From NCBI GenBank assembly GCA_942493245.1, contig OW818685.1:4770973-4834972 (forward strand): 64,000 nucleotides of DNA, read 5' to 3'. Positions within the stretch are counted from its first letter, which is position 1; every line of letters starts with the position of its first letter. Positions 2,578 to 24,709 of this stretch are shown in pieces. The notes beneath the pieces were generated by a model. The model had not been told where the DNA came from and did no database searches. It worked only from the letters and a program-made list of their open reading frames with translations. Source of the DNA: an uncultured Candidatus Sumerlaeota bacterium. GTDB taxonomy: Bacteria; Sumerlaeota; Sumerlaeia; UBA8349. Made by a program: the position numbers and the translations under genes.

Positions 2578-2643
2578 GTAAAAGATCCGGGCCACGCGAA
2601 ACGGTTTTCGAGTGGCCCGTACCTTCTGCGATTCTTTTCAAGT

Positions 2644-4862: not shown

Positions 4863-5002
4863 TTGCGAAAAGGGGGCAACAACGGTTTCCATGTTCATAA
4901 AAAGAAAAGGAGGGAGAAGGCCTCCGATCCGGATTCCTCTCCCTCCTGAACCTCTTGCTTCAACTCGTCAGACCCGTCCGCTCAGAAACCGGCCTCACGG
5001 GT

Positions 5003-8000
5003 TCATTCCACGATACCTGCCGCGCTCGTGTGGATGATAAACTGCGTGACAGGCGGTTGAGCCGGTTTGAACTTCGGCCTGGCTTTCGGATCGGTCGAAA
5101 TGAAAGCCTCACCCTCGATCCGGCCCGTTTTCGACGTGGTGATGCTCTTGATCCCGCCGGTGTAGACGGCCGTGCCGTCCTCCTGGAAGCCCGCGTAGAA
5201 CTGGCCCGACACCCCGTTCAGACCCGACAGAGTCGTGATACAGGAAATCGTTCCGGTCTTCGGCTGCGCCAGCACTCGCATGCGGCTCGGTTCCCACGGG
5301 AAGCCCAGGTAGCCGCCCAGATAGACGGTCCCCACCTTGACGGTCTTCGCCGACAGAAGCGCGATCGGTCCCGCGCTCTTCAACTCCGACGTCCTCAGGT
5401 TGCCCTGCAGGATCCGGGTGCCCACCGTTGTGGTGGCATAGGCGCCCCCGCTCACCATCACCTTTGCGACCGGCCCCTGCGTACCCTGCAGTAAGCCGAG
5501 CGCCACCGGTCCACCGGTGGATTGCACCAGCGCGAAACTCGGCGCGGAGAGCCAGGTGTCCTGAACCGACAGGAGCGTTCCGCCCTTGACATCCTTATCC
5601 ACGTCGCCCAGGGCGCCGATACCCGCCTGGCTGAAGCGCTTTTCCTTCGTGGCCGAGTCTTTGAACTTGCGCGTGGCCACCTTGACGTACTTCACCGGCT
5701 GCGAGGTCAAAAGGCCCTCGAGCACTGCGCCGTTGATCGCCACCGACAGGGGAATACTTCCCACCGTCTGAATGGAGGTGACGCCAAACTCGGTAAAGTT
5801 CGTCCGCGACGAATTGTATGACGCCGTGATCTTCAACGTCCCGACGTCCCCGCCCTTGTAATCTTCCAAGCCGTTGGCCGCTGTCACCGACTTGACCGAA
5901 GAGGCCTGCATCCGGTAGATCGGCGCATCCGAGGCGAACGTGCCAAAGAGGCCCGGAATCACAACCGACGGAATCTCGCGCGTTTCGAGGTATGCGGTCC
6001 CCGGTTTCGCCACCGTGCCACTCGCCGTTCCGGCAGGCAGTCCCTTGGGCAGCCACTTGATCTTGATCGCGCTCTTGTCCGTGGTGCCGTTCAGGGTCAG
6101 GCCACCCGTGGTCGGAGTATCGAATGCCAGCGTGATGTCCTTGCTGTACGTGATCTTATACGCGCGCAGTGGCAATGTCGGGAGGAAGAGCCACCCCTGA
6201 GCCGGACCGCCCAGAGCGCCGGCGTTTTCACCCGCCGCGCCGTTGGCCGCCTGCACCCAGTAGTAGTACGTCTGACGCCGCTTCGCGGTCACATCCTCGA
6301 AACTTGCGGAGGACTGCCACAAACTGATCGCCTGCGGCGTGTCGGTCGGCGATTCGGCGCGATAGACCCGGTAGTAATACCCGTAACCCGCCAGGGGTTG
6401 CCACGAAACGTTGACCCTGCTGCCCCATTCGCCCTGACTGGCCGCCAGACCGCCCGGCGTCGGGATCGGCGCCACATAGAGCGTCGTGAACGTCCAGACC
6501 GGTCCACTGGTACTGCCAATGGCGTTCTTCGCCACCACCTTCCAGTTGTAAACCGTGTTCGATTCCAGTGAACCCGACGGCGTGAACTGCGTTCCACCCA
6601 GATCGCTCGCCATCGGCGTGGACGGCGTCGGATCGGCCGGTTTCCACAGATAGAAGTCGTGGCTCAGAGCGTTCGAGCCGCCACTCCAGTAGAACGTGGG
6701 AGTCAGCGACACATCCACCGCCCCATTCGACGGGTTGGGCCAGCTGGGCGCGCCCGGCGCCCCGACAACCCGCGTGACAAACGTGAAAATGTCACTCGAC
6801 GTCTGTCCCGCCCAGTTCACCGCCGTGACCTGCCAGGTGTACGTGGTCCCTCCCTGGAAAGTCGGACTGTTCCACCAGTAATAACTCCAGGTCGCCGATA
6901 CCGTCGTGGGGGTGGCGTCGCCCTGTTTCCAGACCGACAGAATGTAACTGTCGGCGTTGGCCGCGTCGTTCCAGTCGAAGGTGGGATCTTCCAGCACGCC
7001 TTCGGCGTTGTTCTCCGGCGAAATCAACTGCGGTTTCTCCGGGGTCACAATCGCCCGCGTCGTGAAACTCCACTCCGGACCCGGCGTTTGCCCCACCATG
7101 TTGCGAGCCACCACCTGCCACTTGTACGTTGTGGCGCCCTCGAGCATCGCGGACGGCGTGTAGTGACTCGCGGTCAGATCGGTCACGGTCGGTTGCGCCG
7201 GTTTGGCGTCCGTGGACTTCCAGAGGTACAGATCGTACTTCGAAGCCGCCGACGAGTCGGCCCAGTCCAGCGCGGTCGTCGGGAGAACCGCCGTGGCCCC
7301 ATCCGACGGAGTCGGTCCGCCCGGCTCACCGGGCAGCGCCGGCGTCTCGGTCGTGAACGACCACAACGCCCCGAGCGTTTCACCCTTGGCGTTCCCGGCA
7401 GTCACGAACCAGTAGTACTTCGTATTGCCCTCGAGCGCTCCCGCCGGTTTGAACGAACTGGCGGTCAGCCCCGACGTGGTCGGAACCGTCGGACGAGGTT
7501 GCGCGGACGGCCACAGGTACACGTTGTACCAGAGCGCATCGGTCGCATCGGACCAGTCGAGCGTCTTATCCACCGACACGTTCGTTTCACCCACATAGGG
7601 GGATGGACTGTCGGGAATCACCGGCTCGGGCGAACCCACACGCTGGGTACGGAACGTCCAGACCGGCCCGACCGTATCGCCCGTCGCGTTGCGCGCCACC
7701 ACCTGCCACTTGTACACCGTGTTGTACGCCAGATCGCCCGGATCGTACTCGGTCGAGTAGGCATAGTTGGGCCAGCCGGGTTTTCCATCCACCTCGCGCC
7801 AGACATAAATCAGGTAGTAACTGCCGGCCCGCGCGGACGCTTCCCAGGCCAGATTGATCGCCACCGAAACGCCGGTGGAATTATCGGGTGGGTTGAGCAG
7901 CTTCGGTACGCTCGGCGCGCCCTCGATATGGGTCCGGAAACTCCACTCCGGTCCGGCCTTCTGGTTGGTCTTGCCATTGACCACCACCTGCCACTGGTAC

Positions 8001-11000
8001 TCGGTGTCGAAGTCGAGATCCGCCGTCGGCTTCCACGCCGGGTCAGTCAAACCTGTTATTGTCGGCGCGACCGGCTTCGCCTGAGTCTTCTTCCACAGGT
8101 AGAGATCCCAGGAAAGCGCTCCGGCCGAACGGCCCCACGTCATCGTCGCATCCACCGGAATGGAAAGCGAAGCGTCTTCCGGGTAGGGCGAGAAGGGCGC
8201 CTGAATGTCCGTGCGGAACGTCCAGACCGGTCCTTCCGTCGAATCCACCCGGTTTTTCGCCACCACCTGCCACGAATACGTCGTCAGGTAGTCGAGGGCG
8301 GCGGGCAGCGGATACTGACTGACCGACAGCGCCTCGGCGGTGAACGTGGTGGGCACAGGTTTGTCGGCCCGCCAGAACTTCAGGTCGTAAGATGTCGCCA
8401 TCGGCGTGTCGGCCCAGTCCAGTTGCAACGCGACCGATGCGGTCGTTGCGCCGTCCGCCGGAGCGGGTTGCGCCGGGGTCTCGGGTTTCAGCAGGATCGT
8501 CGTGAAGGTCCAGGTCGGCCCCTCGGTCCCCCCCGCCGTGTTGCGCGCCACGACTTTCCACTTGTAACTGGCGTCGTAGGGCAACGTCTGCGGCGGCGAG
8601 TACTGACTCACCGTCAAACCCGACGTGGTGGGCGACCAGGGTTGCCCTTCCGTCGCTTTCCAGAGATAGACGTCGTAGGTCGCCACGCGCTTCGAGTCCG
8701 CCCAGTCCAGCGTCAAGGTGACGGGCGCAGTGGTTGAATTGTCCTCGGGGTTGGGCGTCGTGGGCGCTTCCGGCGCAGTCAGATAGATCGTCCGGAACGC
8801 GGATTCCGTACTCGCCACCGTTCCCTGTGCGTTGCGCGCCACCACCTGCCAGCGGTAATCCGTCCAGTAGGCCAGACCGCCCGGTACCTGGAAGGTCTTG
8901 CCCATCAGCCCCGCCTGAGTCGGAACAACCGGTTTGGCCTCATTCGACTTCCACAGATAGAAGTCATACGAATCGGTCAAGCCGCCGCCGCTCCAGTTGA
9001 AGGTCACATCCGACTCGACGTTGGTGGCGTTGTTGGCCGGGGTCAGCAGAATCGGGCGTTCGGGCCAGATGGACGGCGCAAACGTCACCTGATCGACCCA
9101 CCCGGCGTTACTGCCCGCCGTCCACCACCCACGCGTATAGACCCACTTGAGCGAGTGCGATCCGGCGGGCACCTCGACGGTCTGTGAGGTCCAGCCCACT
9201 TCGCCGTTGATCGAGACCTGTTGCGCATCGTCAATGTAGAACCGCAGCGTGGTGTCGGTGTGCGCCGAGAGTTTCCACCAGAACGTCAACGTGCGATGCT
9301 CGGTCGTCGAGATGTCGGCGCGCAACGTGCTCGGCACGTTATAGCCCGTGTTGCCGCTCTGCGCCGCATCAACGCCGTCGTGCGTCACCTCGGTCTGATA
9401 GAACCACGTTGCGTCCCCTTCGGTGGACCATGTCATGGGCAGCAGGTTCGCATCCACCGAGTTAGCCAGATTCTTCGGATAGACGCTCAACAGCCACGAT
9501 TCTTCGTCCGAACCCAGTTCGTTCGTGGCGCGAATGGTCACCGTGGTGACCCCCTCGGTCGCCGAAGCCCACGAGACCACGCCGGTGCCGGCGTCAATCG
9601 TCATGCCCTGCGGACCGGCCACCAGCGACCAGGCGATCGGCTGCGCGCCCTGAACCATCTCCGGTGTCGGACCGGTATAAGATTCACCGACCGAGACCGA
9701 AGCGTCGGGAATTTCAACAATGACCGGCGCCTGCGGATCAATGATATTCAGAGTCACCTGCGTCTGCATCGCGGTGCCAAGCTCCACATACCGCGCGGTC
9801 AATGTGACCTGGGATGGGGTCGGAGCATCCGGATCAATCGTGATCTCGACTCCGTTAATCTCAACATAATCCGCCGGAGCCGCCTCGAACTCGATCGTCG
9901 AGGTCACGTTCAGACGCGTACCGTTCACATAGTTGACAAACGCGCGTCCGTTGATCACATTGCCCGGACTGACGTTGATCTCAGTCCCTTCGGCCATCGC
10001 CTTCGACACCACCCGACCCACTCCGTCTTCCACCTGCGCGGAAAGCGCCTTGAGGGTCGAGGACGTCTCGGGGAAGTCCAGATAGACTTCGAGGTTGCCC
10101 GCCAGGACGCGGTGATAGAGCGACACGTAGCCCTCGCGCCAGCCGATCATCAGCGTCTGGTCGTTGTTGCTGAATCCCACCGACGCTGCGCCGATGTTCT
10201 CCTCACCCATACCCGAAGCCGGCAGGAACTCGCGGATCGTCGAGCCGTCGTTCATGTTGATGAGCCGCACCGGGCGCGCCGATTGCCCCGGCTTGCTGCC
10301 GCCCGAAACACCCACCAGCGCCAGCGTCCCATCCTCGGAAATGGCCACGGTGAAGGACGCGTCCACCGACTCGCCCATCAGCGCATCCACCGTCACACTC
10401 ATGATGAAAATATCATTGACCAGAGAGGGACCGGCGACCAGGTCCGAAATGTCGTAGGTCTCCAGATAGTACATGTGGGTCTGTTCAATATCGTCTCCCG
10501 AGACCTCCTCGGTCACGGCCACACACCGTGTGCCCAGTTCGTTCACAAACAACTGCAAGGGCGAGTGGCGCGTCTTCATGCCGTTGAACAACAGACCCGC
10601 GCTGTTCCAGATCCCGATAAACCGTTCATTGTACATGCCGCCCAGGAAGTGGTTCTCGAGGCGGAAGTCAAGAGCGCCCGCCACACGGGATTCCTCGCGA
10701 ATCTGGCTCAGGTTCGCCAGATCCCACAGCCGCACCTTCGAGTCCGCCGTCACCATCCGCGTTCCCTGCGGCGAGATGGCAAACGCAGACGCCGGGGTAT
10801 GCAGCGTTTTCCAGAGCAGATCGTTGGCCGTATCGTACATGAAGATCGAAACGCCCACGCGCGTGGCCAGTTTCGAACTGTCGTTGGTAAAGTCCATGCC
10901 CTCGAACTTCGGGTCAATGAAGTACCCGGTTTCCATCAGGCGCGTCGCGGTCATATCCACCCGGTTTGTCCCCGGTGTCCACTTCATGGTCCGCTTCGGA

Positions 11001-14000
11001 TCCTGCGTGAAGACCGTCTTGCCGTCTCCGGAGATATGCGCGCCGCTCATCGGGAAACTGTGCGCCAGCGACCCTCGGAAGATCCCGCGTCCGACTTCCC
11101 AGAACTGGAACGACGAAAATTCGCTGATCTTTTCTTCCTCGCCGATGTCCATCCCCATGAACGACACACCCACCGTCTTGCGGCCCGTCGTGCGGCCCGT
11201 CACCACATACTGACCCGACGGATCCACCAGGTAGTGGACAATCTTGCCTTCTGCCGGCGGGTGGTCCAGCCACCGCAACAACAGCCCGTCCTTGTTATAG
11301 ATCCAGGTCGAAACCGGGTCGTTCGTGGCCACATACAACTGTTCGCCGATCACCTTGGCCGCCGTCACAGCCGCCGGGTACTCGTAACGGTCTATCACCT
11401 CGAGGTCCGACTTGCGCCAGCGCGTCAGGGTCTGGTCTTCACCCGTCGAATAAAACCCGTCCGTCCCGAGGTAACCCACCGCCGTGACCGGCTTGGTGTG
11501 AACCAGCAGACCGCTCGGGCGCACCCGGGAACCATCCGTCCGGTTGAACACCATGACGACGTTATCCGCGCCACCGCTCAGCACCTGCGTGCTGTCGAGC
11601 GCCACACTCTGCGTCTTGCCCGTGTGGGCCGGCTTGAGCCATGTGAAGACATTCGTCGAGAGGTCGAACAAACCCACGCGTCCGATCTCATCGCCCACCG
11701 CCAGCATCGCCGTAGCGCCCGAACCCGAGAGCGCCGCACAAACAATTCCCGCATCGTGCGTGAACACGGTCAACGGTGTCGAGGTCGGCACATCCACAGC
11801 CCAGGTCTTGATCGTACCTTCGCCGCCCACCGTCACAATACGCGCCGCGTCCAGATACGCCACGAAGGATATCTGTCCTTCGTGCGCCATGATCACCTGT
11901 TTGATCTGGTACTGCGACGGCGTCACCCCCACCTCGTAGAGGTTGATCGCGCCCGAGCTGCTTCCCAGGGCCAGATTTTTCCCATCCGCGCTGTAGGCGC
12001 CGGACAGACCGTACCCGCCACCCGTCACCTGATAGCGTTCCCACTCGGTCTTCGGGCCGTACAGCGTCACCACCGTGTCGGTCGTGATCGTCTCGCCCGA
12101 CAGCGCCGTGTAGGAACCCGTCACGAGGTAATTGCCCGGACGGGCCGTGTAGTTCACCTTGACGTTCTGCCCCAGAATCTCCATATCCTCGGGCTTGTCC
12201 GCCGTGAGCGTCACATCGGCCGAGACGTCGGCGCTGTAGCCGTCGTCCCACCACGCCGTGTACCGGATGTTACGGAACACGCCGGGGTTCAGGGACAGGT
12301 GATTCGGATCGGCCACCAGCGACACGACCCGGGCGCCGTCCTCATTCACCAGCACCCGCGCTTCGCCGGTCAGGTTCCGGCCACTCTCGCGGTACTGGGC
12401 GCGCAGGACAAACTCACCTTCGGCGCCCGGAGCCACTGTTACGACATTCCCCTCGAGGGTGGCCATCGAGGCCGGTTCGACCTCGATCGTCACCGACGTG
12501 GCTTCCACGCCGCTGCGCGGCGTGATATCGCGCCGGGTGCTGTCGTCATAGACCAGTTCGACCGTGTAGTCCTGGCTCTCGCCCGGTTTCAACACACGCA
12601 GGCTCGGGGTGATTTCGATGCGATCGGCCTGCGAGCGCTCGTACGTTTCCACGTAGTTGTAACTCCAGGCGATCATGATCAACGAGTCGTTGCGCGCGAA
12701 TTGGACCGACCGCACCCGCACGTCCATCAGGCTCGAGTGCATCGGGTAGAAGTAGCGCAGAATGCGGCCCGTCTTGACGTCGTAGAGCCGCACGGTGTTG
12801 TCGCCGCCGATCAACAACAGCGACCCATCCTGCGAAAGCGCCGCATCGTAGTTTGTCCCCTCGAACCGGTACAACCCCACCGGCAGCTGTTTCGGCATGT
12901 CGTACATCTGGACGCCGGTGTGCGCATCCACCATCCCCACTCGTTTGCCGTCGGGGTGGTAAAGCATCTTGTAGGGCGTGTAGGGATTCGTGTTGGTCAT
13001 GTTGTACAGCACGGCGTTCGGGTCATTGGTGCGCAGGGTGATGAGCGACTTGTTGTTGGCGATCGCAAAACCCCACTTCGATCCGTCGCCGCTGAACGCG
13101 CTCTGGTAGTTGCCGTCCGGGCTGGCGTAGTTCGCGAACAGGTCACCCGTCTTGGCCGAATAGAGACGGTCGCCCAGCGCCGCCAGATTGCCATCGGGCG
13201 ACAGGCTGATGTTCGTGTAGTAATAGGTTCCCAGCGTGCGGTCGAGCACCTTCGAGAAGCCTTCGTCACTGACCGCTTCGATCTGGAAACGCCCACTCCA
13301 TTCGTTCGTGATCCACGCCACTTTCGAGCCGTCGTTCGATACATCGAAACCGTAAATTCCATTCAACCCGTCCGAGCGCCGGATCGTCTTGCCCGATTCG
13401 CGCTGCAACAGGTTCATGCCCCAGTTGGTCTCATAGAACAGCCGCGCGCCGTCCTGCGAAAGTCGCGGACGAGCGCTGTTCCAATCCGAAAAGTATCCCT
13501 GCGGACCATACTGCCCGACAAAGGAACCGTCGGAAACCAGGAACACCGCCGACGGCGCCCAGCCGTTCCCGTTCGAATTCACCATCACCCGCTGACCCGC
13601 GTCGTCGAACGTCACGTTGTCGAGGCTGCCGCCCCAGTTCCCACCCGACACGGTATTCAGGTTGATCTGATAAAGTTCCAGTCCCAATTCGTCGTACATC
13701 CGCAACATGGCCTGGTTACCCGTTCCGGTAATCATGCAAATGCGCTTGCCGTCGAACGAAACCGCGGCGCCCTGCGCATTCTGGCCCGTCAGAGAGATCG
13801 TACGCACCGGCATGTGGGTGGAGATTCTCCAAAGTTGGACCGTGGCGTCAGTCGAAGCCGTCATGAGGTGGCTGCCGTCACCCGTGAAACCCACCGCCGT
13901 CACCGCCTGGCTGTGGCCCAGGAACGCCTGCCCCACCTGTACGCCCGTTTCCGAGTTCACCAGGTACGCAAAATTGTCGCTCGTTCCCACCGCAATGGTC

Positions 14001-17000: not shown

Positions 17001-20000
17001 CGCTCGATGGATCGCAGTGAACAGCGGTTCAACTCCACATTGCCGCCGTTCAGAACTTCGACCCCGTTGAACCGCCAGCTGTCGTAATACTCCGCGCGTG
17101 TGTAGAACTGGAAGTCCGCGTCAGACGCCACCAGCGTCCCACTCACCTTGATGGCCGTGAAATCCAAAGACCCGCCGTGTCGCACACGGACTCCCGGCCC
17201 GATCGTCAAAGTGACTCCAGCCGGAACCACCAGCTGCGACGTGATCAGATAATCCTTGGTCGTATCATTCCAATTCGTATTCGCCGCCAGAGTCCCTCCG
17301 ACGACGTTCTGGGCATCGTCGTCCATCTCGACCACCTGGACCTGTTTCGACACGACCCCAACCGTTGAACCGGACTCCGCGATCTGGAACTGGGTGGTTC
17401 CATTCGCCGAGTCTCCATCCGCCGCTGCCGCCAGCGTTACGGCCACCGGTGTGTTCCACGCAGACGGTTGAATCTGGAACGTCGCGCCACTCGAAACCGT
17501 CAGATCGGCGTCGCCCCCGGCCACCGCCGTCACCGCCAGCGACACCGGCGCCGAAGGCATCGCGCTGAGCCACACGTGGAAAACCGTCGTGCCCGCTTCA
17601 GCCACCGGCATCTCATCCAAATCGGTCATGACCTCAACCACAGCCGCCACGGCGGGCGAGGCATCCGCCACCCCCATCACTTCGGCGGTCAACAGGTCGT
17701 TGTCGCGGTTCACATCCTCAACCACGCTCGCATCATCGCTCCGCACGTCAAACTTCGCCGGCGTTTCCGGCGACACACTGCCCGCAGGCAGATCCACCGG
17801 CACCTCGGCGCTCGTACCCGCCGCCAGCGCCGGGATCGAGGCCGTTGCCAAAGCCGCGCCACTCGCGCCTGCCGGGCGCACGCCCAGCGTCGCCACCGGC
17901 GACTCCGGTCCACCCGCGTTGCGCACCCGCACCACCAGCCGCGCCGAACCATCCGCCTGCGCCACAGACGAAACCACTTCCATCGGACTGAGGTCCGTGC
18001 CACCCAGCGTCACCCACTGCTGGTTGTTGTATTCGTTGAATTCCGTCACGGTCGAATCCGCGTCCACCACGGCGTACAGCGTGTGCGCGCCCACCGGTTC
18101 GGGGATCGTCCAACTCAACGCGACCGTCACCGACGTGCCGCCCTCGAACCAATCGCCCAGTACCCGCCGCGCCACTTCCACGCCGCCCGCCGCCGGGTTG
18201 CCGTCGTACACCACCACCGAGGCGCCCTGCACGGGCAGGTCGCCCGTGTTGCGCACCAGAATCTCGAAATCCACCACTTCGCCCGAGAGCAACGGGCCGG
18301 CGGAATAGGTCAGGTCGCCCGGCAGAATCGCCAGATCCTTCACCAGCGCCCGCTTCACCACCGCCAGATCCGCCTGGCCGCGCGTCGGCACGCCACCGAT
18401 GGTCACCGACCCGCCGCCATCCAGCGCGATCGTTTCGGTTGTCAACGAAACCGCCTGGCGGTTGTACGCCACGGTCAGGTTCCCCAGATCGTCCCACGCC
18501 GGGGCGTACGCATACTCGATCGCCGCGTCCTGGAACAGCCGCCGATCCTGGCTCCAGACACCGGAGGCCGGATCATAGACCGTGTACATCGCGTTCGTCC
18601 CCTCGGCCGTCTGCGCCTGCCAGATCAACCCAAGGTTCCCGTCGGGATTCGGAGCCAATGCAAAGTCCATGAAGCCCATCGAGTTCGAGTTCGCCCGCAC
18701 GAGCGAGGTCGTCGTCTCGAAATTCTGGTTCATCACCAGGTCGCTGCCCATCTGCCACACCAGATACGTCTGGCCCGTAGCCGTCACGGCGGCCCGGATC
18801 GAATCGTCCAGAACCGCGTTGTTCGTCAACCGAGCCGGCGCGCTCCACGATGAGCCGTTGTATTTCGTGTAATACACTTCCGTGTCTTGCGTCGAGCTGG
18901 TCGCCAGATCGAGTTCGCGCGTATAGGCGTACACGGCCAGATTCCCCGCGCCCGCCAGCGTCTCCGCGCGCTCGCCGGTCAGGTTCGCCACGAGCGCAGC
19001 CGGGGCCGACCAGGTATTCGCATTCGCGTCGAACCGCGCCCAATGCGCCGTCGTCGGAGCCGCGTCGCTCCCGACGAAATAATTTTGCGCGTTCGACTTC
19101 CACGTCAGCAACACGCTGCCGTCCGCCATCGGCCCGCACAACTGCGGACACTGGTCCAGGTACGCGTTGTCCGTCAACGCCACCGGTGTTGACCACGTGT
19201 GGGCCGAGTGGTCCCACCGCGCCCAGACGATCTCATACAGCGGCATGATGACGTCCAGGTTCGCGGTCGTCAGGTTCGGATCCTTCACCCGTTCCCACAC
19301 GGCCACCGCGTCGCCATCGCCGTCGAACGCCACCTGGGGCGCGAACTCACCCTGAGTGTTCGTCTGGATCGGCGCCGGGGCCGACCAGGTTGTCCCGTTG
19401 TAATACGTCCAGTGAATATCCGCGAACTGCAAGTCCGCCCCACCATTGTCCGCCGAATAAAGCAACATCAACGTCGAGCCGTGCGAGGCCAGCGCCGGAG
19501 AGGAATCCGGGTACACATTCGTCACCAGCGTCAGGTCCGCCTGCTCCAGACCCGACGTCACACTCTCTCCGTCCGCCTTGACCAATCCCTCCGCCGCAGC
19601 CCGCACCGGCTGCGCACCCGACGTTCCCAGCATCCGGAAACGATCCAGCGGCGTCTCGCCCGATTCGGCAGACTGAATACCGACCGATGCGCCCGAGGCC
19701 ACAAACTGGCTCGGACCGTTGGCCAGGTAGGCCCGCGACACGGGCCGCTGCCCCGTTACAGAAACGCCATCGGCCAGGAGCGAATTGGGACTGAAGAGCG
19801 CGACGATCCCTTCGCCTCCCTCTGACGGGTAGGTCAGGAACGGATACTCGCCCTTGACCACTTCCATGTCTTTCCACTTGAAGATCGCCCGGACCAGCGC
19901 CTTGAACTCGATCCCCTTGAATTCCGGAATCTGCAAGATGCGCGTTTTCAGCGCCCCCTCGCCACCCACCGACAGCTCCGCCGTCAGCGCCTTATAGAGG

Positions 20001-23000
20001 CGTGGGTTGTAAACCGCGCTGAGCGACGCGCCGAGCTCCGTATCCAGGTTCTCGATCCGCACCGGGGACACGCACAACTGCGCCTCGCCCTTGCCACTCA
20101 AGCCCCCCACAATGTCGAGCCGCTGGATCGAATTGATGTCGAATTTCCACTTCTTCAGATAATCCAGGAACCGGGCAATCTGACCACCCGGGAAGAGGTC
20201 CGTCAGGAGAAACGAAATGATCGTGTCCTTGAACGCGACCTCCAACCCCACCACCGCCTTCTCGAACGACACCCCGGCCAGCGGTGTCGCCTTGCCGCTC
20301 ATCGTGAACGACGGCTTGATCTCCACCTCTTTTTCTCCGTAACGGAACAGCACCTTGCGGTGGTTGTTCCGGTCGCGCTCATTGCCCCGGTAATACTTCT
20401 TCCCTTCGGACAACTTCTTCGCATCGTCGTCCATCGAGCCATTGATCCCCACCGACCACTCGCCGTTGGTCAGTTTATAGATCAAGCCCAGGACCACTTC
20501 GACTTCCGGCCCGAGATAGCCGAGGAAGGGCAGGTTCTTTGTGTTTTTCAGTTTGACCAGCGTCACCTCGCCGCTCAGGAACAGATCCAGGTCCGTCGGC
20601 GTCGTAGGAATCATAGACAGAATCAGACGGAACAGTTCGGGCAACGCCACCACGTTGATTGGCTCGACCCGCTCGGCCTTGCGGCCTTCCTGGTCCTCGG
20701 CCACCACCGTGATCGCGTAACGCCCCAGATTCGTCACGCCCGAGAACCACTGGCTCACGTCGAACTCGAGTTCGAAGAAGTCCGGCGCAGGAGTCCCCAC
20801 TTCAATTTCTTTTGTCTCTTTCGTATCGTTCGACGAGAACGTGACCTTCTTCGGGGTGCCCCCGTTCCAGTTCACGTTCACCACATACTTGTCCCTGAAA
20901 TTGCTCAACCCGGCCAGCAACACGCTCTCGCCGCTGCCGTAGCTCAGTTTGCCCGCCGCGATGGACGGTCCCACCGTCTGCTCCGGCAATGTCAGGTCTA
21001 TCACCACCTGTGCCCCGTTCGACGGAGGCTCGATCGGAAGGGCGTTCTCCCCGTAGCCGTTCTTCGACACCGTCACCACCCGGGCGTCGCTCTCGACCAG
21101 GTCTGCCAACTGGTACTTGCCGTCTGCGCCGCTCAACACCTCGCGCGACGGCGGCTGATTCTTGCGAATCCGCGCCGCCACCGTAGCACCCGCCACCGGC
21201 TTGCCGTCTTTGTCGGTAATCGTTCCCACCACGGTGAACGGTTTGGCCACGGTCAGGACCGACAGGCTCTCGCCCGTCAGTTTCTGTCCCCCGCGCGTGT
21301 TGGCCGAAATGCTGTACCGGATCGGGTACGACCCCGGCTCGAGCGTCTTCCCCTCGGGCAGGGTATAGGTTGCCACCCACTCACCCGCGCCGTCGGACCA
21401 TTGCAGTTTCCCTTCGCCCCGCGCCGTGCCCGAGTTGTCCGTCAGTTTCCACGTAAATTCGTCCGCGTTCTGGTTCGTGATCGGCTGCTGGATCAGATCC
21501 GTCGCTCGTGCCCGGACGTCTAGCGTCCGCGTCAGACGGTTGTAGTTCTCCGACGATTCGATCGTTACACCCGACGAAAGGGAACGGTAATAGACCCCCG
21601 CTCCTTCCTTCCAGACGTAATCCGCGGCGCTCGCGCTGCGCGCCGCCATGCGCTCGAACGCCGGCGACCCTTCACTGTCCGAAACACTCTTGGCCGCCTT
21701 CAGGTCGCTCGCGTTGCACGAATAGATCTGAGCCGGTTCGCCCGCCACACCTTCGTACATCCAGGCAAAGAATTCCTTGCCAAAGCCCCCCGCCACCTCG
21801 GGATACCGCGCCGCATACGAAAGCAGCGTCGGCTCCCTGACCCCGGTTCCCCCCAGGTTCACCGGGTCGCCATTCGACTCGATCCGCTGCCAGTACATCG
21901 CGTTTGAGGTCGAACACCACACAATATCCATCTGACGCGCGCCGCTCGAAGCGATCTGCGGACCGCCGTAGGTCACCAACACATTCCGATCGGGAGAAAT
22001 CTCATGGTAGAGTTTCCCCTTCCACTTCAACCCCTTGCGCGCATGGACCACCGACCAGGTTGTCCACGCCGGGTCAGGAGCCGCCCCCTTGGCGTCTTCC
22101 TTGTGCCGCCATACCACGTGCAGGTTGCCCGTCGAGTCGTATGCCAGGTCCGGACGCCCGTAGCCATCGAACGAATAACTCCCGAACGCCACACCAAACT
22201 TGCGCGAGAACGGCGCCCACCGCGTTTCGGTAATCGGATTCCCATCGGTCCCCAGTTCGACCGTCGCGATGAAATTGATGCCGTTGGGCGCCGGGGTCGC
22301 GTCATCGTACACCCGCCCCTCGCACACCACGATCGGCTGTCCCGCCGGGGTCAAGGCAATCGCCGGCCAATTGTATTCCTGGTTTTTGTATGTCGAGGAC
22401 GGATAGATCTGGAACGCGCGCGACATCTTGTACACGCCGTCTTCGATCCGGATGTAGTTCAAAATGCTGCGGCTCGTCGTCGCGTGGACCACATGCACGA
22501 CGCCCGCCTTGTCCACCGCAATGCGCGGCACCAGCACCGCCGAACTCGACGAGCGGTAGATTTCCTTGGCCGGCACCACCACCTGGTAATCCTTGTCTAT
22601 CTTCGTGTACCACAGGTTGTTGTTGGCCTTCCAGATGATGTGCGCATTCCCCGCGCCGTCAATCGCCATATCCGGCACCGACGCGTTCTGTCCCTCGGGG
22701 CTGACCAGTTTCGCCGGATACTGGTCGTTATCCAGGATCGTCAGCGTGTGGACGTTGTTCACCCCGATGTCCACATTGCCCGGCGAACCGGTCACCGTTG
22801 CCACAATTGTCTCTTTCTTTTCCTTCTCCTGATCGTCCACAATCGCGAAGTTCAGGAAACTCGAACTGGTCCCCTTATAAATCGTCACCGTCATCTGAGA
22901 CGGGGGGTAGTAATCCTTGTCCGCCTGCGCCGTACCACTCAGCGCGTACTGAATCGCGATGTCTTCCGGAGCGACCTCCGACAACGTCACCGTCGCCGTA

Positions 23001-24241
23001 AACGACCCGATACTCTCGAGCGCCGACGCCTCGGTGGCCTGAAACTCCACCCGCGCCTTCTCGTTGTCCACAATCGTCATCGTGTGGGTCGCGATTTCGC
23101 CCAACCCCGCGTTGCCCGGCTTGGCCAGAGTCAACCCGACCGTTTCCAACCCCTCGAACTCGGTGTCTTCTACGATCTTGATCGGAATGTCAACCTGAGC
23201 CGTTCCCGGCTGGAAGGTCACGCTCGACACCTCGGGCGCCTGGTAGTCCTGCCCGTTGCCACTCGGCAACGCCGTCCCGCTCAACCCATATTGAACGACG
23301 ATTGTCTCGGTCGAGGCGCGCGACAGCTGCGCCACCACCGTCACATCGCCCGCAGACTCCAGCACCCGCGAATCCGCCTTGAAGAAACTGACCGTGGGCG
23401 GCTCATTGTCCTTAATCAACAACGTGAAATCCGGCGCACCGCCGACCTGATAGGGCGGCACACCGCCCGACGCATCCGCCGGCAGCAGTTCCAGCACGAC
23501 ACTCTCCGTCTGGATTTCCTCTTCTGTGTCATTGGTCACCTGAATCGGAATCGTCACCGACTCCGCGCCCGTCGGAACCGCCAGCGTTCCCGTCAACGTC
23601 CCATAGTCCACACCCTGCGACGCCGTTCCCGTCACGCGGTACGCCACGTTGATCGGACCGTCCGGCGCGGGCGAGAGCGCCACCTGAACGGCCACCAGTC
23701 CGGCATCCTCCTTCACCGTCCGCGCCGAAGTCACAAACGACACGCTTGGCGTGTCGTCGTCGCGAATCTTGAGCGCAAACCGTCCGCTGTTGCCCGGCGC
23801 TCCGGCCTCAGCCTGAACCGCGTCGGCCAACTCCAACTCGACCGTCTCGGTGTTTTCCGGCTCAGCGTCGTTGGTCAACGCCACCGCAATCTCAGCCACC
23901 GCCGCCGCGCCGCCGTTGGCCACGACCGCGACGGAACCGCTCAGGGCCGTATAATCGGCGCCTGGCGTCGCAGTCCCCCCGACAGTGTAGTCAATCGTCA
24001 GCGGTTGGGGCAACGGATCTCCGGTCAACGATTCCACCAGCACGTTCACCTTGACCGTGCCCGCGCTTTCGTTGTACGTGGCCTCGGGCGCCAGGAAACG
24101 CGCCGAGATCTCGGCGGCCGCCTGGCACTGTCCCGCCAGACTCCACCCCAGAAGCAGACACAGCGCCCCGGCGCCGATGCCCCGGCTCCAAGACCCCGCG
24201 CGCCCCAAGAATCCCGCTTTGGATGTGAACTGAGAAAACAT
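5003..24241 (-). CDS. Giant (about 6,412 aa) secreted multidomain surface/adhesin-like protein
   Basis: Single uninterrupted frame (ORF 5003..24472). The likely start is ATG 24241 (MFSQFTSKAGFLGRAGSWSRGIGAGALCLLLGWSLAGQCQA, a signal peptide) with AGGAAAGG about 10 nt upstream. Domains recognised, N- to C-terminus:
- about 4 Calx-beta repeats
- BNR/sialidase-like propeller
- Ig-like plus CarboxypepD_reg-like (TVVGTITDKDGKPVAGATVAARI)
- a Lys-rich lower-GC module
- a second BNR-like propeller (YYNGTTWSAP, SAHTWSTP, NANTWSAP, NGSSWSAP)
- CARDB
- right-handed beta-helix (NxxS/T-rich)
- dockerin/VCBS-like Ca loops (DANGNGVVDAGEG, DKNSDGVVDAGDE)
- WD40/TolB-like propellers flanking a Big_2 domain
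- about 10 Fn3 repeats (TYxWQVVA(R/K)N)
- an about 400-aa C-terminal region of unknown type. Confidence 0.9.
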   Translation of the reverse strand: MFSQFTSKAGFLGRAGSWSRGIGAGALCLLLGWSLAGQCQAAAEISARFLAPEATYNESAGTVKVNVLVESLTGDPLPQPLTIDYTVGGTATPGADYTALSGSVAVVANGGAAAVAEIAVALTNDAEPENTETVELELADAVQAEAGAPGNSGRFALKIRDDDTPSVSFVTSARTVKEDAGLVAVQVALSPAPDGPINVAYRVTGTASQGVDYGTLTGTLAVPTGAESVTIPIQVTNDTEEEIQTESVVLELLPADASGGVPPYQVGGAPDFTLLIKDNEPPTVSFFKADSRVLESAGDVTVVAQLSRASTETIVVQYGLSGTALPSGNGQDYQAPEVSSVTFQPGTAQVDIPIKIVEDTEFEGLETVGLTLAKPGNAGLGEIATHTMTIVDNEKARVEFQATEASALESIGSFTATVTLSEVAPEDIAIQYALSGTAQADKDYYPPSQMTVTIYKGTSSSFLNFAIVDDQEKEKKETIVATVTGSPGNVDIGVNNVHTLTILDNDQYPAKLVSPEGQNASVPDMAIDGAGNAHIIWKANNNLWYTKIDKDYQVVVPAKEIYRSSSSAVLVPRIAVDKAGVVHVVHATTSRSILNYIRIEDGVYKMSRAFQIYPSSTYKNQEYNWPAIALTPAGQPIVVCEGRVYDDATPAPNGINFIATVELGTDGNPITETRWAPFSRKFGVAFGSYSFDGYGRPDLAYDSTGNLHVVWRHKEDAKGAAPDPAWTTWSVVHARKGLKWKGKLYHEISPDRNVLVTYGGPQIASSGARQMDIVWCSTSNAMYWQRIESNGDPVNLGGTGVREPTLLSYAARYPEVAGGFGKEFFAWMYEGVAGEPAQIYSCNASDLKAAKSVSDSEGSPAFERMAARSASAADYVWKEGAGVYYRSLSSGVTIESSENYNRLTRTLDVRARATDLIQQPITNQNADEFTWKLTDNSGTARGEGKLQWSDGAGEWVATYTLPEGKTLEPGSYPIRYSISANTRGGQKLTGESLSVLTVAKPFTVVGTITDKDGKPVAGATVAARIRKNQPPSREVLSGADGKYQLADLVESDARVVTVSKNGYGENALPIEPPSNGAQVVIDLTLPEQTVGPSIAAGKLSYGSGESVLLAGLSNFRDKYVVNVNWNGGTPKKVTFSSNDTKETKEIEVGTPAPDFFELEFDVSQWFSGVTNLGRYAITVVAEDQEGRKAERVEPINVVALPELFRLILSMIPTTPTDLDLFLSGEVTLVKLKNTKNLPFLGYLGPEVEVVLGLIYKLTNGEWSVGINGSMDDDAKKLSEGKKYYRGNERDRNNHRKVLFRYGEKEVEIKPSFTMSGKATPLAGVSFEKAVVGLEVAFKDTIISFLLTDLFPGGQIARFLDYLKKWKFDINSIQRLDIVGGLSGKGEAQLCVSPVRIENLDTELGASLSAVYNPRLYKALTAELSVGGEGALKTRILQIPEFKGIEFKALVRAIFKWKDMEVVKGEYPFLTYPSEGGEGIVALFSPNSLLADGVSVTGQRPVSRAYLANGPSQFVASGASVGIQSAESGETPLDRFRMLGTSGAQPVRAAAEGLVKADGESVTSGLEQADLTLVTNVYPDSSPALASHGSTLMLLYSADNGGADLQFADIHWTYYNGTTWSAPAPIQTNTQGEFAPQVAFDGDGDAVAVWERVKDPNLTTANLDVIMPLYEIVWARWDHSAHTWSTPVALTDNAYLDQCPQLCGPMADGSVLLTWKSNAQNYFVGSDAAPTTAHWARFDANANTWSAPAALVANLTGERAETLAGAGNLAVYAYTRELDLATSSTQDTEVYYTKYNGSSWSAPARLTNNAVLDDSIRAAVTATGQTYLVWQMGSDLVMNQNFETTTSLVRANSNSMGFMDFALAPNPDGNLGLIWQAQTAEGTNAMYTVYDPASGVWSQDRRLFQDAAIEYAYAPAWDDLGNLTVAYNRQAVSLTTETIALDGGGSVTIGGVPTRGQADLAVVKRALVKDLAILPGDLTYSAGPLLSGEVVDFEILVRNTGDLPVQGASVVVYDGNPAAGGVEVARRVLGDWFEGGTSVTVALSWTIPEPVGAHTLYAVVDADSTVTEFNEYNNQQWVTLGGTDLSPMEVVSSVAQADGSARLVVRVRNAGGPESPVATLGVRPAGASGAALATASIPALAAGTSAEVPVDLPAGSVSPETPAKFDVRSDDASVVEDVNRDNDLLTAEVMGVADASPAVAAVVEVMTDLDEMPVAEAGTTVFHVWLSAMPSAPVSLAVTAVAGGDADLTVSSGATFQIQPSAWNTPVAVTLAAAADGDSANGTTQFQIAESGSTVGVVSKQVQVVEMDDDAQNVVGGTLAANTNWNDTTKDYLITSQLVVPAGVTLTIGPGVRVRHGGSLDFTAIKVSGTLVASDADFQFYTRAEYYDSWRFNGVEVLNGGNVELNRCSLRSIERNYTDNWRWSAIVTSSDTSSIQVKGCSFESLNTLSGNRTSFGVQMRLLPNASIGDDTTQATPIPCSFRGFSYGIGWKFGTGVQNVGVCQFQDCQSNVRIWGDVTGTAVVRNKGTQILFDNTNADQYSSNGTVVVKAGGTLTFETSSTLVTDHPNRLLVVEAGGTLNLTDVEVDSVASIRVYGTMQATGTAFLGRAARLYYASSRVSPLEVYAGGTANLKTCSFYVHEANVTTDINWWAAHVWVAPPDTANSLVGGQLYADGCFFTSVNCESTITPMALLFQTDRNWEVTRSGFVGNAYTIWTGNTYGVTGAMATAPTLTGNFFENSSNYAVYNNTQTAFDAPDNWWGSATGPRHVGNAAGLGDPVTDYVNYTGLSLEPSFPMVRFVNPVTGQERTNLEVGSALSAVELLAFRVTPQASQVREVGFRLSEAAGNFQWSQMANFRLAVDTNGDGRISGSEQTTVGGAGLLLTEGSNQSVVFSDPFVSENSPSGAYILLADARDVVAGQGFTVSLNDRFCRVPAGTGIETEADSARHVAGPAVILSNPVDGQLSDQLNAYAAQQDVRLLGFQLKGDATKQVERLTVRLSNVEGLTAQKIRSVSLIADANGNGVVDAGEGTVGGAPEVSVSGGSGTIEFSRQTFATESAYLVVADFAYLSGGNRFKIGLSTADIKLVGTATVSGAADAVTHIVKYPLQLSKSAAWQAPTNFGASASQDDVPILGFQLAPAGIEAQSLQLDMSNMTGIEIADISGARVYWDKNSDGVVDAGDELVVGDGQLQITETGAGTLLFDASFVSRGDMIAVANFANLKNGDEITFSIRSEGIGVGAGQMVSGTAPEARLVVGSGLGDNPNQNMKWTLTYRSPGGTRVSGRFNHAGNRVILGYDTGSAWVFDSESNTPLIMLKDHYDKVRYAGFSSDDSAAVTVSRDGAVYIWDLNTSGSLRSAMFADLLVTYAVPSPDFSKLMVITEGKGMLLDIDTQRRLWEFVPGNATVNAIAYSPDGQTIAVGTSDNFAYLVNSETGVQVGQAFLGHSQAVTAVGFTGDGSHLMTASTDATVQLWRISTHMPVRTISLTGQNAQGAAVSFDGKRICMITGTGNQAMLRMYDELGLELYQINLNTVSGGNWGGSLDNVTFDDAGQRVMVNSNGNGWAPSAVFLVSDGSFVGQYGPQGYFSDWNSARPRLSQDGARLFYETNWGMNLLQRESGKTIRRSDGLNGIYGFDVSNDGSKVAWITNEWSGRFQIEAVSDEGFSKVLDRTLGTYYYTNISLSPDGNLAALGDRLYSAKTGDLFANYASPDGNYQSAFSGDGSKWGFAIANNKSLITLRTNDPNAVLYNMTNTNPYTPYKMLYHPDGKRVGMVDAHTGVQMYDMPKQLPVGLYRFEGTNYDAALSQDGSLLLIGGDNTVRLYDVKTGRILRYFYPMHSSLMDVRVRSVQFARNDSLIMIAWSYNYVETYERSQADRIEITPSLRVLKPGESQDYTVELVYDDSTRRDITPRSGVEATSVTIEVEPASMATLEGNVVTVAPGAEGEFVLRAQYRESGRNLTGEARVLVNEDGARVVSLVADPNHLSLNPGVFRNIRYTAWWDDGYSADVSADVTLTADKPEDMEILGQNVKVNYTARPGNYLVTGSYTALSGETITTDTVVTLYGPKTEWERYQVTGGGYGLSGAYSADGKNLALGSSSGAINLYEVGVTPSQYQIKQVIMAHEGQISFVAYLDAARIVTVGGEGTIKTWAVDVPTSTPLTVFTHDAGIVCAALSGSGATAMLAVGDEIGRVGLFDLSTNVFTWLKPAHTGKTQSVALDSTQVLSGGADNVVMVFNRTDGSRVRPSGLLVHTKPVTAVGYLGTDGFYSTGEDQTLTRWRKSDLEVIDRYEYPAAVTAAKVIGEQLYVATNDPVSTWIYNKDGLLLRWLDHPPAEGKIVHYLVDPSGQYVVTGRTTGRKTVGVSFMGMDIGEEEKISEFSSFQFWEVGRGIFRGSLAHSFPMSGAHISGDGKTVFTQDPKRTMKWTPGTNRVDMTATRLMETGYFIDPKFEGMDFTNDSSKLATRVGVSIFMYDTANDLLWKTLHTPASAFAISPQGTRMVTADSKVRLWDLANLSQIREESRVAGALDFRLENHFLGGMYNERFIGIWNSAGLLFNGMKTRHSPLQLFVNELGTRCVAVTEEVSGDDIEQTHMYYLETYDISDLVAGPSLVNDIFIMSVTVDALMGESVDASFTVAISEDGTLALVGVSGGSKPGQSARPVRLINMNDGSTIREFLPASGMGEENIGAASVGFSNNDQTLMIGWREGYVSLYHRVLAGNLEVYLDFPETSSTLKALSAQVEDGVGRVVSKAMAEGTEINVSPGNVINGRAFVNYVNGTRLNVTSTIEFEAAPADYVEINGVEITIDPDAPTPSQVTLTARYVELGTAMQTQVTLNIIDPQAPVIVEIPDASVSVGESYTGPTPEMVQGAQPIAWSLVAGPQGMTIDAGTGVVSWASATEGVTTVTIRATNELGSDEESWLLSVYPKNLANSVDANLLPMTWSTEGDATWFYQTEVTHDGVDAAQSGNTGYNVPSTLRADISTTEHRTLTFWWKLSAHTDTTLRFYIDDAQQVSINGEVGWTSQTVEVPAGSHSLKWVYTRGWWTAGSNAGWVDQVTFAPSIWPERPILLTPANNATNVESDVTFNWSGGGLTDSYDFYLWKSNEAKPVVPTQAGLMGKTFQVPGGLAYWTDYRWQVVARNAQGTVASTESAFRTIYLTAPEAPTTPNPEDNSTTAPVTLTLDWADSKRVATYDVYLWKATEGQPWSPTTSGLTVSQYSPPQTLPYDASYKWKVVARNTAGGTEGPTWTFTTILLKPETPAQPAPADGATTASVALQLDWADTPMATSYDLKFWRADKPVPTTFTAEALSVSQYPLPAALDYLTTYSWQVVAKNRVDSTEGPVWTFRTDIQAPFSPYPEDASLSIPVDATMTWGRSAGALSWDLYLWKKTQAKPVAPTITGLTDPAWKPTADLDFDTEYQWQVVVNGKTNQKAGPEWSFRTHIEGAPSVPKLLNPPDNSTGVSVAINLAWEASARAGSYYLIYVWREVDGKPGWPNYAYSTEYDPGDLAYNTVYKWQVVARNATGDTVGPVWTFRTQRVGSPEPVIPDSPSPYVGETNVSVDKTLDWSDATDALWYNVYLWPSAQPRPTVPTTSGLTASSFKPAGALEGNTKYYWFVTAGNAKGETLGALWSFTTETPALPGEPGGPTPSDGATAVLPTTALDWADSSAASKYDLYLWKSTDAKPAQPTVTDLTASHYTPSAMLEGATTYKWQVVARNMVGQTPGPEWSFTTRAIVTPEKPQLISPENNAEGVLEDPTFDWNDAANADSYILSVWKQGDATPTTVSATWSYYWWNSPTFQGGTTYTWQVTAVNWAGQTSSDIFTFVTRVVGAPGAPSWPNPSNGAVDVSLTPTFYWSGGSNALSHDFYLWKPADPTPSTPMASDLGGTQFTPSGSLESNTVYNWKVVAKNAIGSTSGPVWTFTTLYVAPIPTPGGLAASQGEWGSRVNVSWQPLAGYGYYYRVYRAESPTDTPQAISLWQSSASFEDVTAKRRQTYYYWVQAANGAAGENAGALGGPAQGWLFLPTLPLRAYKITYSKDITLAFDTPTTGGLTLNGTTDKSAIKIKWLPKGLPAGTASGTVAKPGTAYLETREIPSVVIPGLFGTFASDAPIYRMQASSVKSVTAANGLEDYKGGDVGTLKITASYNSSRTNFTEFGVTSIQTVGSIPLSVAINGAVLEGLLTSQPVKYVKVATRKFKDSATKEKRFSQAGIGALGDVDKDVKGGTLLSVQDTWLSAPSFALVQSTGGPVALGLLQGTQGPVAKVMVSGGAYATTTVGTRILQGNLRTSELKSAGPIALLSAKTVKVGTVYLGGYLGFPWEPSRMRVLAQPKTGTISCITTLSGLNGVSGQFYAGFQEDGTAVYTGGIKSITTSKTGRIEGEAFISTDPKARPKFKPAQPPVTQFIIHTSAAGIVE
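6250..9100 (-). repeat. Tandem array of about 10 fibronectin type III-like repeats inside the giant CDS
   Basis: Repeated about 95-aa units ending ...Y(K/R)WQVVA(R/K)N..G.T.GP.W(T/S)F(T/R)T. Confidence 0.7.
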
Positions 24242-24680
24242 GGTGGACCACCTTTCCTGACCCGGCGACCGTCTTGAACGGCCCTCCCGGGTTCTTTGAA
24301 AAAAATACCCTCTGCGCCTCGATAGATCTTCCGTTCGGAAACGCAAAGACGATGAGTCGGGCAGGCGCACTTCGCCCGCCGGTTGAAAAAGCGCCCGGTC
24401 ATTCCACAACCAGACGCCAAAACCCGTCTGCAAAAGACGGGGGAAAACCAGACACACAGGGTGTTGACGCAACTGCGGGGAACCGGCCCGGGGAACACCC
24501 TCATCCGAGACTCGTTCGCGGGGGACAAAAGCATTCCCCCATCTCGCCCCGGAAAACCATTCCGACTTTTGATGACTGTGTACAGACCTCTAACGGTTCT
24601 TCTGTCACAAAAAAACCGCCCCATCCCCACGCACAAGAAATTTGGAAAACCCGCGCAAAACCACACTCTTCCACATATAT

Positions 24681-24709
24681 AGGATACAGCCACCCCTTGA
24701 GCCTGTCAA
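24681..24709 (-). promoter_or_regulatory. Candidate sigma70-type promoter for the giant gene (TTGACA-17-TATCCT)
   Basis: On the minus strand, CTTGACAggctcaaggggtggctgTATCCTatatatg. The -35 is at 24709..24704 and the -10 at 24686..24681. This would give an about 430-nt 5' UTR. Confidence 0.35.

Follow-up and report, generated by a model that had tools for sequence, protein, structure and literature searches.

The subject of this study is a single very long gene on a 64-kb stretch of DNA (contig OW818685.1; 64,000 nucleotides, here called the window) assigned to Candidatus Sumerlaeota, and in particular the domain with which its product ends. The gene (19.2 kb) encodes a mosaic protein of 6,412 amino acids (aa), hereafter the giant protein, and its last ~395 residues (aa 6018-6412, with no residue beyond them) constitute a conserved C-terminal domain (CTD) that, as judged from sequence comparisons, defines a previously undescribed family. 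Giant mosaic surface proteins are common, and neither the size of this one nor its list of modules is remarkable; the new element is the family of terminal domains, predicted to be beta-helices, which is conserved, confidently modelled, missing from current domain libraries and a mark of exported proteins with unrelated cargo. As for the giant protein as a whole, the chances seem to be about even that it is exported by the Sec route and tethered by its C-terminus, as a giant fibril or adhesin on the cell surface of Candidatus Sumerlaeota.

A conserved C-terminal domain on unrelated exported proteins

The initial annotation had recognized no anchoring or sorting signal at the C-terminus. What is found there is a conserved fibronectin type III (FN3)-like module followed by the CTD, and a role of this kind may be proposed for them. 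A word-indexed homolog search was nearly blind in this case, returning one match for the CTD (P0001, a protein that also ends with it) and again one with a profile of 18 CTD sequences, as against 93 clusters found by HMMER. In the latter search, a profile built from the giant protein and P0001 was compared in a full scan with 1.84 billion cluster representatives; the threshold of E <= 1e-3 was passed by 93 proteins, of which 64 also passed <= 1e-10 and 24 also <= 1e-30. The CTD of the giant protein is 23-39 % identical to those of 17 family members, and the 18 aligned domains have no match in Pfam, NCBIfam or any PDB sequence.

Of the 70 matches extending to the profile end, 58 finish within 10 residues of the protein C-terminus, and two are exceptions. 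The one clear exception to C-terminal placement is P0059 (955 aa; its cluster is annotated as Candidatus Sumerlaeota), in which the signal peptide is followed first by the CTD-type beta-helix, located N-terminally at aa 41-457, and then by a clostripain domain (Peptidase_C11). Most of the homologs inspected have an FN3-like module of the type YRV.RA...Y.YWV.A, here called the adaptor, just before the CTD, and a signal-peptide-like N-terminus was seen in 36 of the 53 CTD proteins that start with M (by a heuristic, not SignalP). The giant protein has the features expected of a member: its last ~395 residues match the whole length of the CTD profile, it ends with the CTD after an adaptor, and it starts with a predicted Sec-type signal peptide.

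Proteins with the domain have lengths of about 500 to 3,994 aa, exceeded by the giant protein as the longest member found here, and the cargo upstream of the CTD is mutually unrelated: it comprises multihaem cytochromes c, peptidases (Peptidase_C10, M6, S8 and C11), VWA and SBBP domains, RCC1 propellers and Flg_new_2 repeats. Several CTD proteins may be encoded by one genome, at least six on a single contig of 5,996,854 bp and two in GCA_030154545.1, and at least two of the CTD clusters have a Sumerlaeota source. Since modules of the giant protein recur in other CTD proteins, namely its FN3-like repeat type in P0012 and P0025 and a Calx-beta array together with an immunoglobulin (Ig)/He_PIG unit in P0070, the family evolves by module shuffling. 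The 5,996,854-bp NCBI contig is apparently a complete genome, and its CTD proteins are P0018, P0021, P0029, P0031, P0035 and P0102. In another member, P0005 (1,948 aa), the cargo consists of many multihaem c-type cytochrome domains in a row, and this protein would be a surface-displayed electron conduit if its CTD does act as a surface tether.

Predicted fold of the domain

AlphaFold2, run on the alignment of 18 sequences, yielded an all-beta model of the CTD with a mean predicted local distance difference test (pLDDT) score of 92.3 and a predicted template modelling score (pTM) of 0.92, and the domain can with confidence be predicted to be a right-handed beta-helix. Its fold matches share 5-13 % sequence identity with it. 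With few exceptions (K6060, Q6181, K6191 and S6204), the positions conserved in at least 80 % of the members are occupied by G, A, I, Y or F. No catalytic constellation is apparent among these residues, and their pattern suits a scaffold better than an active site.

Relation to known secretion and anchoring systems

Two known systems resemble the CTD proteins in certain aspects. The first is two-partner secretion (TPS), with exoproteins such as HMW1, EtpA, HxuA and FHA. Their TPS domain is N-terminal, carries NPNL and NPNGI motifs, is described by Pfam Haemagg_act, and has a TpsB gene beside it. In contrast, the domain of the giant protein is C-terminal, lacks NPNL and NPNGI, has no match to the Haemagg_act hidden Markov model (HMM) and is 8-10 % identical to TPS domains. 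No TpsB (Omp85/ShlB) gene was found in the flanks of the gene in the window or at four other CTD loci. Membership of the TpsA family was rejected for lack of both a TPS domain (Haemagg_act) and an adjacent TpsB gene.

The second system is type IX secretion (T9SS), in which the C-terminal signal is an Ig-like sandwich of ~80-100 aa. The logic is shared, in that a Sec signal peptide and a conserved C-terminal domain are combined on many unrelated cargo proteins across a genome, while the domain itself is different, a predicted beta-helix of ~395 aa. An identity as T9SS cargo was rejected because no T9SS CTD model of NCBIfam or Pfam matches the last 697 aa of the giant protein or any of 18 CTD members.

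Other classes can be dismissed on similar grounds. For PEP-CTERM, LPXTG and GlyGly-CTERM proteins there is no LPXTG motif, PEP occurs internally only, a C-terminal hydrophobic stretch is lacking and no model matches. A repeats-in-toxin (RTX) adhesin of the type I secretion system (T1SS), as represented by LapA, SiiE or MpIBP, is contradicted by the presence of a signal peptide, by the count of 0 GGxGxD motifs and by the absence of adjacent ABC transporter or membrane fusion protein genes, the neighbours encoding a ribonucleotide reductase (RNR) and a cytidylate-kinase-like protein. A type V autotransporter is not compatible with a CTD modelled as a beta-helix solenoid instead of a 12-stranded barrel, and no autotransporter model matches. 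In agreement with these scans, the initial annotation had already listed LPXTG, PEP-CTERM and an obvious T9SS CTD as absent.

It could be imagined that the CTD is a secretion signal and not an anchor, recognized by a dedicated outer-membrane translocon in the way that T9SS or TpsB recognize their substrates, and possibly cleaved, with release or re-attachment of the protein. We regard this as unlikely. Known C-terminal signals are far smaller than the ~395 aa of this domain; NPNL and NPNGI motifs are lacking, and neither Haemagg_act nor a T9SS model matches it; no Omp85/TpsB-like or other candidate gene adjoins it at five loci; and in P0059 it occupies an N-terminal position. A broader proposal, that the CTD and its FN3-like adaptor are the recognition or anchoring module of an unrecognized surface-display or secretion pathway, can be put forward tentatively. 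Such a pathway would be analogous to that of T9SS CTDs or TPS while being structurally distinct, would occur in Sumerlaeota and other mostly uncultured bacteria, and would serve dozens of unrelated cargo proteins, of which the giant protein is the largest so far. If the CTD is indeed a tether or sorting tag, it would help to predict which proteins Sumerlaeota and other carriers expose at the surface, would serve as a bait for the partner machinery by phyletic profiling, and would be a candidate display scaffold.

The giant gene is real and under purifying selection

On the minus strand, a single frame stays free of stops from position 24472 of the window down to the stop codon, and its first ATG, at 24241, is preceded by GGAAAGGTGG, which resembles a ribosome-binding site. 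At the GC content of the window (~62 %), ~3 % of random codons would be stops, and for 6,412 codons the probability of staying open by chance is p ~1e-80; a chance origin of the frame is therefore not credible. In a scan of JGI metagenome contigs a sole relative was found, Ga0116170_10003649 (L025). Its positions 6428-11314, up to the contig end, are collinear with aa 1-1630 of the giant protein, the proteins being 86.9 % and the DNA 84 % identical, with 0 stops in 1,629 codons. The overall Nei-Gojobori dN/dS ratio over aa 1-1630 is 0.11, and the region compared is therefore under purifying selection. The start codon is supported as well, since the same ATG opens the ortholog and the DNA similarity starts just 75 nt upstream of it. 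The strongest constraint is seen for aa 1201-1475 (94 % identity, dN/dS 0.057), the weakest for the signal peptide and the linker at aa 1476-1570.

The 6,412-aa open reading frame (ORF) is thus a real gene under purifying selection. The initial annotation had predicted a single uninterrupted gene for ~6,400 aa, to be doubted if a stop or frameshift were found; the frame is stop-free and the ortholog, over the codons compared, has no stop either. A pseudogene or an assembly chimera, in which the frame would be an artefact of joined repeats from separate loci, could still be considered, as the genome to which the window belongs was probably recovered from a metagenome and independent confirmation covers the first 4.9 kb only. 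Nevertheless, we hold it to be most improbable, and it was rejected together with a chance ORF: so many codons cannot stay open by chance, the testable part has a low dN/dS, and the succession of stalk, FN3 adaptor and CTD is the usual end order of the CTD family. Moreover, the nine FN3-like repeats are mutually only 28-48 % identical in an internal alignment, which makes repeat-driven misassembly unlikely, as repeats of this divergence would not collapse or mis-join.

The N-terminus of the product fits a Sec signal peptide. It reads MFSQFTSKAGFLGRAGSWSRGIGAGALCLLLGWSLAGQCQA followed by AAE, with three basic residues, a 16-residue hydrophobic core that is identical in the L025 ortholog, and a small-x-small cleavage site (CQA before AAE); the signal peptide of the initial annotation is thereby corroborated. 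A lipobox is absent from the N-terminus, and an identity as lipoprotein was rejected for this reason. Apart from the signal peptide, hydrophobic windows above a Kyte-Doolittle (KD) value of 1.6 occur only at aa ~103 and ~4164, within predicted soluble domains, and there is none near the C-terminus.

Modular architecture of the giant protein

About 6,000 residues of the protein are predicted to be beta-rich, non-catalytic interaction modules (Table 1), among them Ig-like domains of a Ca-binding type and four propeller regions of the WD40 type. The initial annotation had counted at least a dozen recognizable module types. Six families do score above Pfam cut-offs, namely Calx-beta (four copies), CarboxypepD_reg, CARDB, WD40 propellers, He_PIG and fn3/Big_10; the others can be made out only from internal repeats or motifs. 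Its view that the combination lies outside the standard families holds, as no described family covers the whole protein.

Table 1. Features of the giant gene and its product, with positions in the window.
Feature	Residues (aa)	Position	Strand	Evidence
Whole giant gene, 6,412 codons and stop at 5003-5005		5003..24241	-	Stop-free frame; ATG with ribosome-binding-site-like GGAAAGGTGG; ortholog
Sigma70-like promoter candidate, TTGACA-17-TATCCT, ~440 nt upstream of ATG		24681..24709	-	Consensus scan, 1 found vs 0.1 expected; pattern match only
Sec-type signal peptide, predicted cleavage between CQA and AAE	1-42	24116..24241	-	Read from sequence
Four Calx-beta domains	42-494	22760..24118	-	Pfam PF03160, E 5e-41, 4 stretches; boundaries by iterated internal HMM
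Putative beta-propeller-like region 1	~510-895	21557..22714	-	P.IA.D..G..HVVW-type blade repeats, sequence reading only
CarboxypepD_reg Ig-like domain	1003-1085	20987..21235	-	Pfam PF13620, E 5e-12, 46 bits vs cut-off 32
Conserved domain without family assignment (275 aa)	1201-1475	19817..20641	-	94 % identity, dN/dS 0.057 vs L025
Putative beta-propeller-like region 2, G(T/S)(T/S)WS.P blade ends	1571-1960	18362..19531	-	Internal blade repeats
CARDB region	1969-2190	17672..18337	-	Pfam PF07705, E 5.9e-16, 2 stretches; PDB 2kut, E 1.2e-5
Putative right-handed beta-helix, ending in NWWG	~2315-2790	15872..17299	-	Internal repeat, aa 2300-2400 vs 2550-2650; NWWG at aa 2757
Three ~140-aa repeats with one D.N.DG..D Ca-binding-type loop per copy	2797-3243	14513..15853	-	Internal HMM, E about 1e-62 to 4e-66
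WD40-type propeller block 1	~3260-3870	12632..14464	-	Pfam WD40, E 4.6e-21, several Beta-prop_* models; PDB PkwA, E 1.5e-10
WD40-type propeller block 2	~4065-4720	10082..12049	-	Pfam Beta-prop/WD40 at aa ~4051-4507; internal similarity to block 1
He_PIG Ig-like domain	4838-4913	9503..9730	-	Pfam PF05345, E 4.2e-6, 27.6 bits vs cut-off 24; PDB 4nzj N-terminal Ig domain, E 4e-4
Nine tandem FN3-like repeats (stalk)	5067-5927	6461..9043	-	Pfam Big_10 and fn3; internal HMM and alignment
Divergent tenth FN3-like adaptor (YRVYRA...YYYWVQAA)	5941-6011	6209..6421	-	Internal HMM; precedes CTD in family members
Conserved C-terminal beta-helix domain (CTD; predicted fold)	6018-6412	5006..6190	-	CTD family and model (see text)
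Weak terminator-like hairpin and T-run, ~80 nt after stop		4909..4925	-	Consensus scan; not enriched over shuffles

Of the modules with database relatives, the CARDB region is recovered by the internal HMM for its first copy only (aa 1969-2074). The Ca-binding-type loops of the three 140-aa repeats are located at aa 2860, 3017 and 3169, and EF-hand and Dockerin matches are sub-threshold. In PDB sequence searches the giant protein has CARDB, WD40 and Ig-like relatives only, and PHROGs returned nothing for its six regions without assignment. Detectable relatives are essentially lacking for a large part of the chain: for aa 560-3260 (2,701 aa) the word-indexed search gave one local match among 5.8 billion proteins, at aa 2209-2314.

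The architecture is reminiscent of fibrillar adhesins. The giant protein shares with them a signal peptide, arrays of Ig-like, FN3-like and Calx-beta domains, propellers of a binding type, a stalk next to the terminal module and the lack of a catalytic domain. The stalk is represented by FN3-like domains (nine copies), Calx-beta domains (four copies), the CARDB region and the three 140-aa repeats, and adhesive domains or an anchor may be sought among the propellers, the putative beta-helix and the CTD. It differs from these adhesins in that it has none of the known anchors (LPXTG, T9SS CTD, PEP-CTERM, autotransporter barrel, RTX/T1SS signal), its terminal module being an undescribed predicted beta-helix, and in that hardly any relative can be detected for some 2,700 aa of its length.

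Very large proteins as such are not rare; more than 41,000 UniProtKB proteins, mostly eukaryotic, exceed 5,000 aa (PMC11573180), and giant bacterial proteins have often been linked to adhesion (bioRxiv 10.1101/2023.11.21.568195). With the giant proteins of Omnitrophota and other uncultured phyla, and with the "huge" proteins above 5,000 aa, the present protein has in common a very long ORF, an uncultured lineage, poorly annotated beta-rich regions and a proposed role at the surface or in adhesion. It is, however, much smaller (6.4 thousand residues), is marked by the terminal beta-helix family, and lacks the features described for Omnitrophota giants (bioRxiv 10.1101/2023.11.21.568195), as it has no C39 peptidase or SecA-related Pfam match, no internal transmembrane-like stretch and no adjacent secretion genes.

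For giant proteins of Omnitrophota a link to attacks on other cells has been drawn (bioRxiv 10.1101/2023.11.21.568195), and the present protein might likewise be a contact-dependent weapon or predation-type protein that delivers aa 1201-1475, as an effector or a membrane-active module, to other cells. This segment is the most constrained one measured and is, by eye, richer in lysine and alternating hydrophobics than the neighbouring sequence. Against this, no toxin, peptidase, lipase or pore-forming model matches, no immunity-like small gene is evident beside the giant gene, and the AlphaFold2 single-sequence model of aa 1192-1482 failed (pLDDT 32) and offers nothing positive, so that we consider a weapon very improbable. 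The segment has no match in Pfam, NCBIfam, PHROGs or PDB sequences, and the combination of strong constraint and lack of detectable relatives makes this 275-aa domain a target for structure determination.

The proposal of carbohydrate-active functions

In the initial annotation two regions had been called sialidase-like (aa ~510-895 and 1571-1960) and one pectate-lyase-like (aa ~2315-2790), and a glycan-binding or glycan-degrading adhesin had been proposed. The calls were motif-based and had been made dependent on support from domain HMMs, and for these regions such support fails. None of the glycoside hydrolase (GH), polysaccharide lyase (PL), BNR, sialidase, Beta_helix, NosD or pectate-lyase models of Pfam and NCBIfam matches anywhere in the 6,412 aa (E <= 0.01-1), the counts of the Asp-box, strict or relaxed, and of the FRIP motif are 0, and no Pfam, NCBIfam, PHROG or PDB-sequence model covers the three regions. 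For propeller-like region 1 there is a weak match to NCBIfam NF053835 (PDIAV) at aa 556-639, with 32.9 bits against a cut-off of 90, and nothing in Pfam, PDB sequences or PHROGs; for region 2 there are just two G.[TS]W[ST] matches and no HMM match in Pfam, NCBIfam or PHROGs. The region at aa ~2315-2790 has a sub-threshold match to G8 (E 0.018) and none to Beta_helix, NosD, GH28 or pectate-lyase models. It may well be that these regions adopt propeller and beta-helix folds, and a six-bladed propeller is possible for the two sialidase-like ones.

A secreted giant enzyme-adhesin, degrading or binding glycans by means of sialidase-like propellers and a pectate-lyase-like beta-helix that act on polysaccharide, is therefore rather improbable. 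The glycan-degrading part is unsupported because models and motifs of the enzymes are missing throughout, the PDB sequence relatives are confined to CARDB, WD40 and Ig, and the conserved positions of the CTD are structural residues. Binding of glycans by the giant protein is a guess.

A possible role at the cell surface

Sumerlaeota are inferred to be scavengers of chitin, cellulose and protein (PMC8092238), and for such a polymer-scavenging lineage attachment to particles or other cells is plausible. In the surface fibril that we propose, the CTD is most likely the cell-proximal module, because it ends many signal-peptide proteins of unrelated cargo with a repeat stalk always adjoining, and because the order of cargo, stalk, adaptor and CTD is that of C-terminally anchored surface proteins. 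The Sec signal peptide would export the protein, and the CTD would tether it to the envelope or be recognized by sorting machinery whose genes lie at another site in the genome. From there a fibril of the N-terminal ~6,000 aa, stiffened by Ca, would project outward, on which the propellers, the putative beta-helix and the conserved domain at aa 1201-1475 would be held tens of nanometres out to bind particles, polymers or cells.

Several points weigh against such a tethered fibril. The tethering to the surface is something that we infer, and the binding of ligands is assumed from the types of domain. The most conserved internal domain (aa 1201-1475) could instead be an effector. A Foldseek search of the PDB with the CTD model gave nothing significant; its best rows are TPS domains, and the likeness to these is at the level of the fold only. 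The N-terminal placement of the beta-helix in P0059 would not suit a strictly C-terminal sorting signal. No partner gene for the CTD was found in five neighbourhoods (the flanks in the window and four other CTD loci), a result that fits a machinery encoded elsewhere, if any exists. Finally, the independent confirmation of the sequence extends over the first 4.9 kb of the gene (aa 1-1630) and not over its last three quarters, the distal 14 kb.

Genomic context

The giant gene is flanked by the RNR gene and the cytidylate-kinase-like gene, and no secretion gene adjoins it. The upstream gene, at 25108-28443 on the minus strand, encodes a class II RNR; it shares 92 % identity with the RNR from a metagenome-assembled genome of Candidatus Sumerlaeota (L001), and it is on account of this identity that the window was placed in this group. 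Published Sumerlaeota genomes have 3.3-3.8 Mb and 56-60 % GC (PMC8092238). In a genome of this size the giant gene would constitute about 0.5 % of the total.

Synteny with L001 spans the window from ~34994 to 24807 and then ends, coinciding exactly with a terminator after the RNR gene (13-bp stem and T-run, 24839-24807, minus strand). The region downstream of RNR in L001 (10748-14836), the closest genome sampled, contains no giant gene. In L025 the ortholog stands beside genes of the aconitase family, for biotin carboxylase and for biotin carboxyl carrier protein (1-6354). As the flanks in L001 and L025 differ, the giant gene occurs in different housekeeping neighbourhoods among close relatives, and its locus is rearranged between them. 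About 490 bp upstream of it (24316-24807), between the terminator and the start of the similarity to L025, are present in neither L001 nor L025 and contain the sigma70-like promoter candidate. A mobile island was considered and dropped, there being no transposase or integrase beside the gene either here or in L025; the 64-kb window likewise contains no tRNA gene or Rfam family at the gathering threshold, so that a marker of an integration site is lacking. The candidate promoter and the weak terminator-like hairpin (Table 1) suggest a monocistronic unit.

Elsewhere in the window, ORFs of 150-640 aa without a Pfam match are found at 141-932, 1618-2079, 36153-37181, 37039-38952, 42247-43587 and 54503-56944. 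A secretion ATPase of the GspE/PilB type (T2SSE and MshEN domains) is encoded at 47211-48971 on the plus strand, 23 kb from the giant gene, and is adjoined by a hybrid PAS histidine kinase/response regulator (49128-51359, plus strand). A second, similar hybrid kinase is located upstream of the RNR region (29889-31805, minus strand). At 31975-34479 on the minus strand, an 834-aa fusion combines pyridine-nucleotide disulfide oxidoreductase, rhodanese, TusA and DsrE-like domains; it looks like a sulfur-transfer or CoA-disulfide-reductase-type protein and is about 90 % identical to its L001 counterpart over 489 aa aligned by tblastx. Neither this protein nor the giant protein was found by exact look-up or self-match in large protein and contig collections, and this genome seems to be absent from them. 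Two tandem paralogs of PMT_2-type (dolichyl-phosphate-mannose-like) glycosyltransferases are encoded at 60243-63328 on the minus strand.

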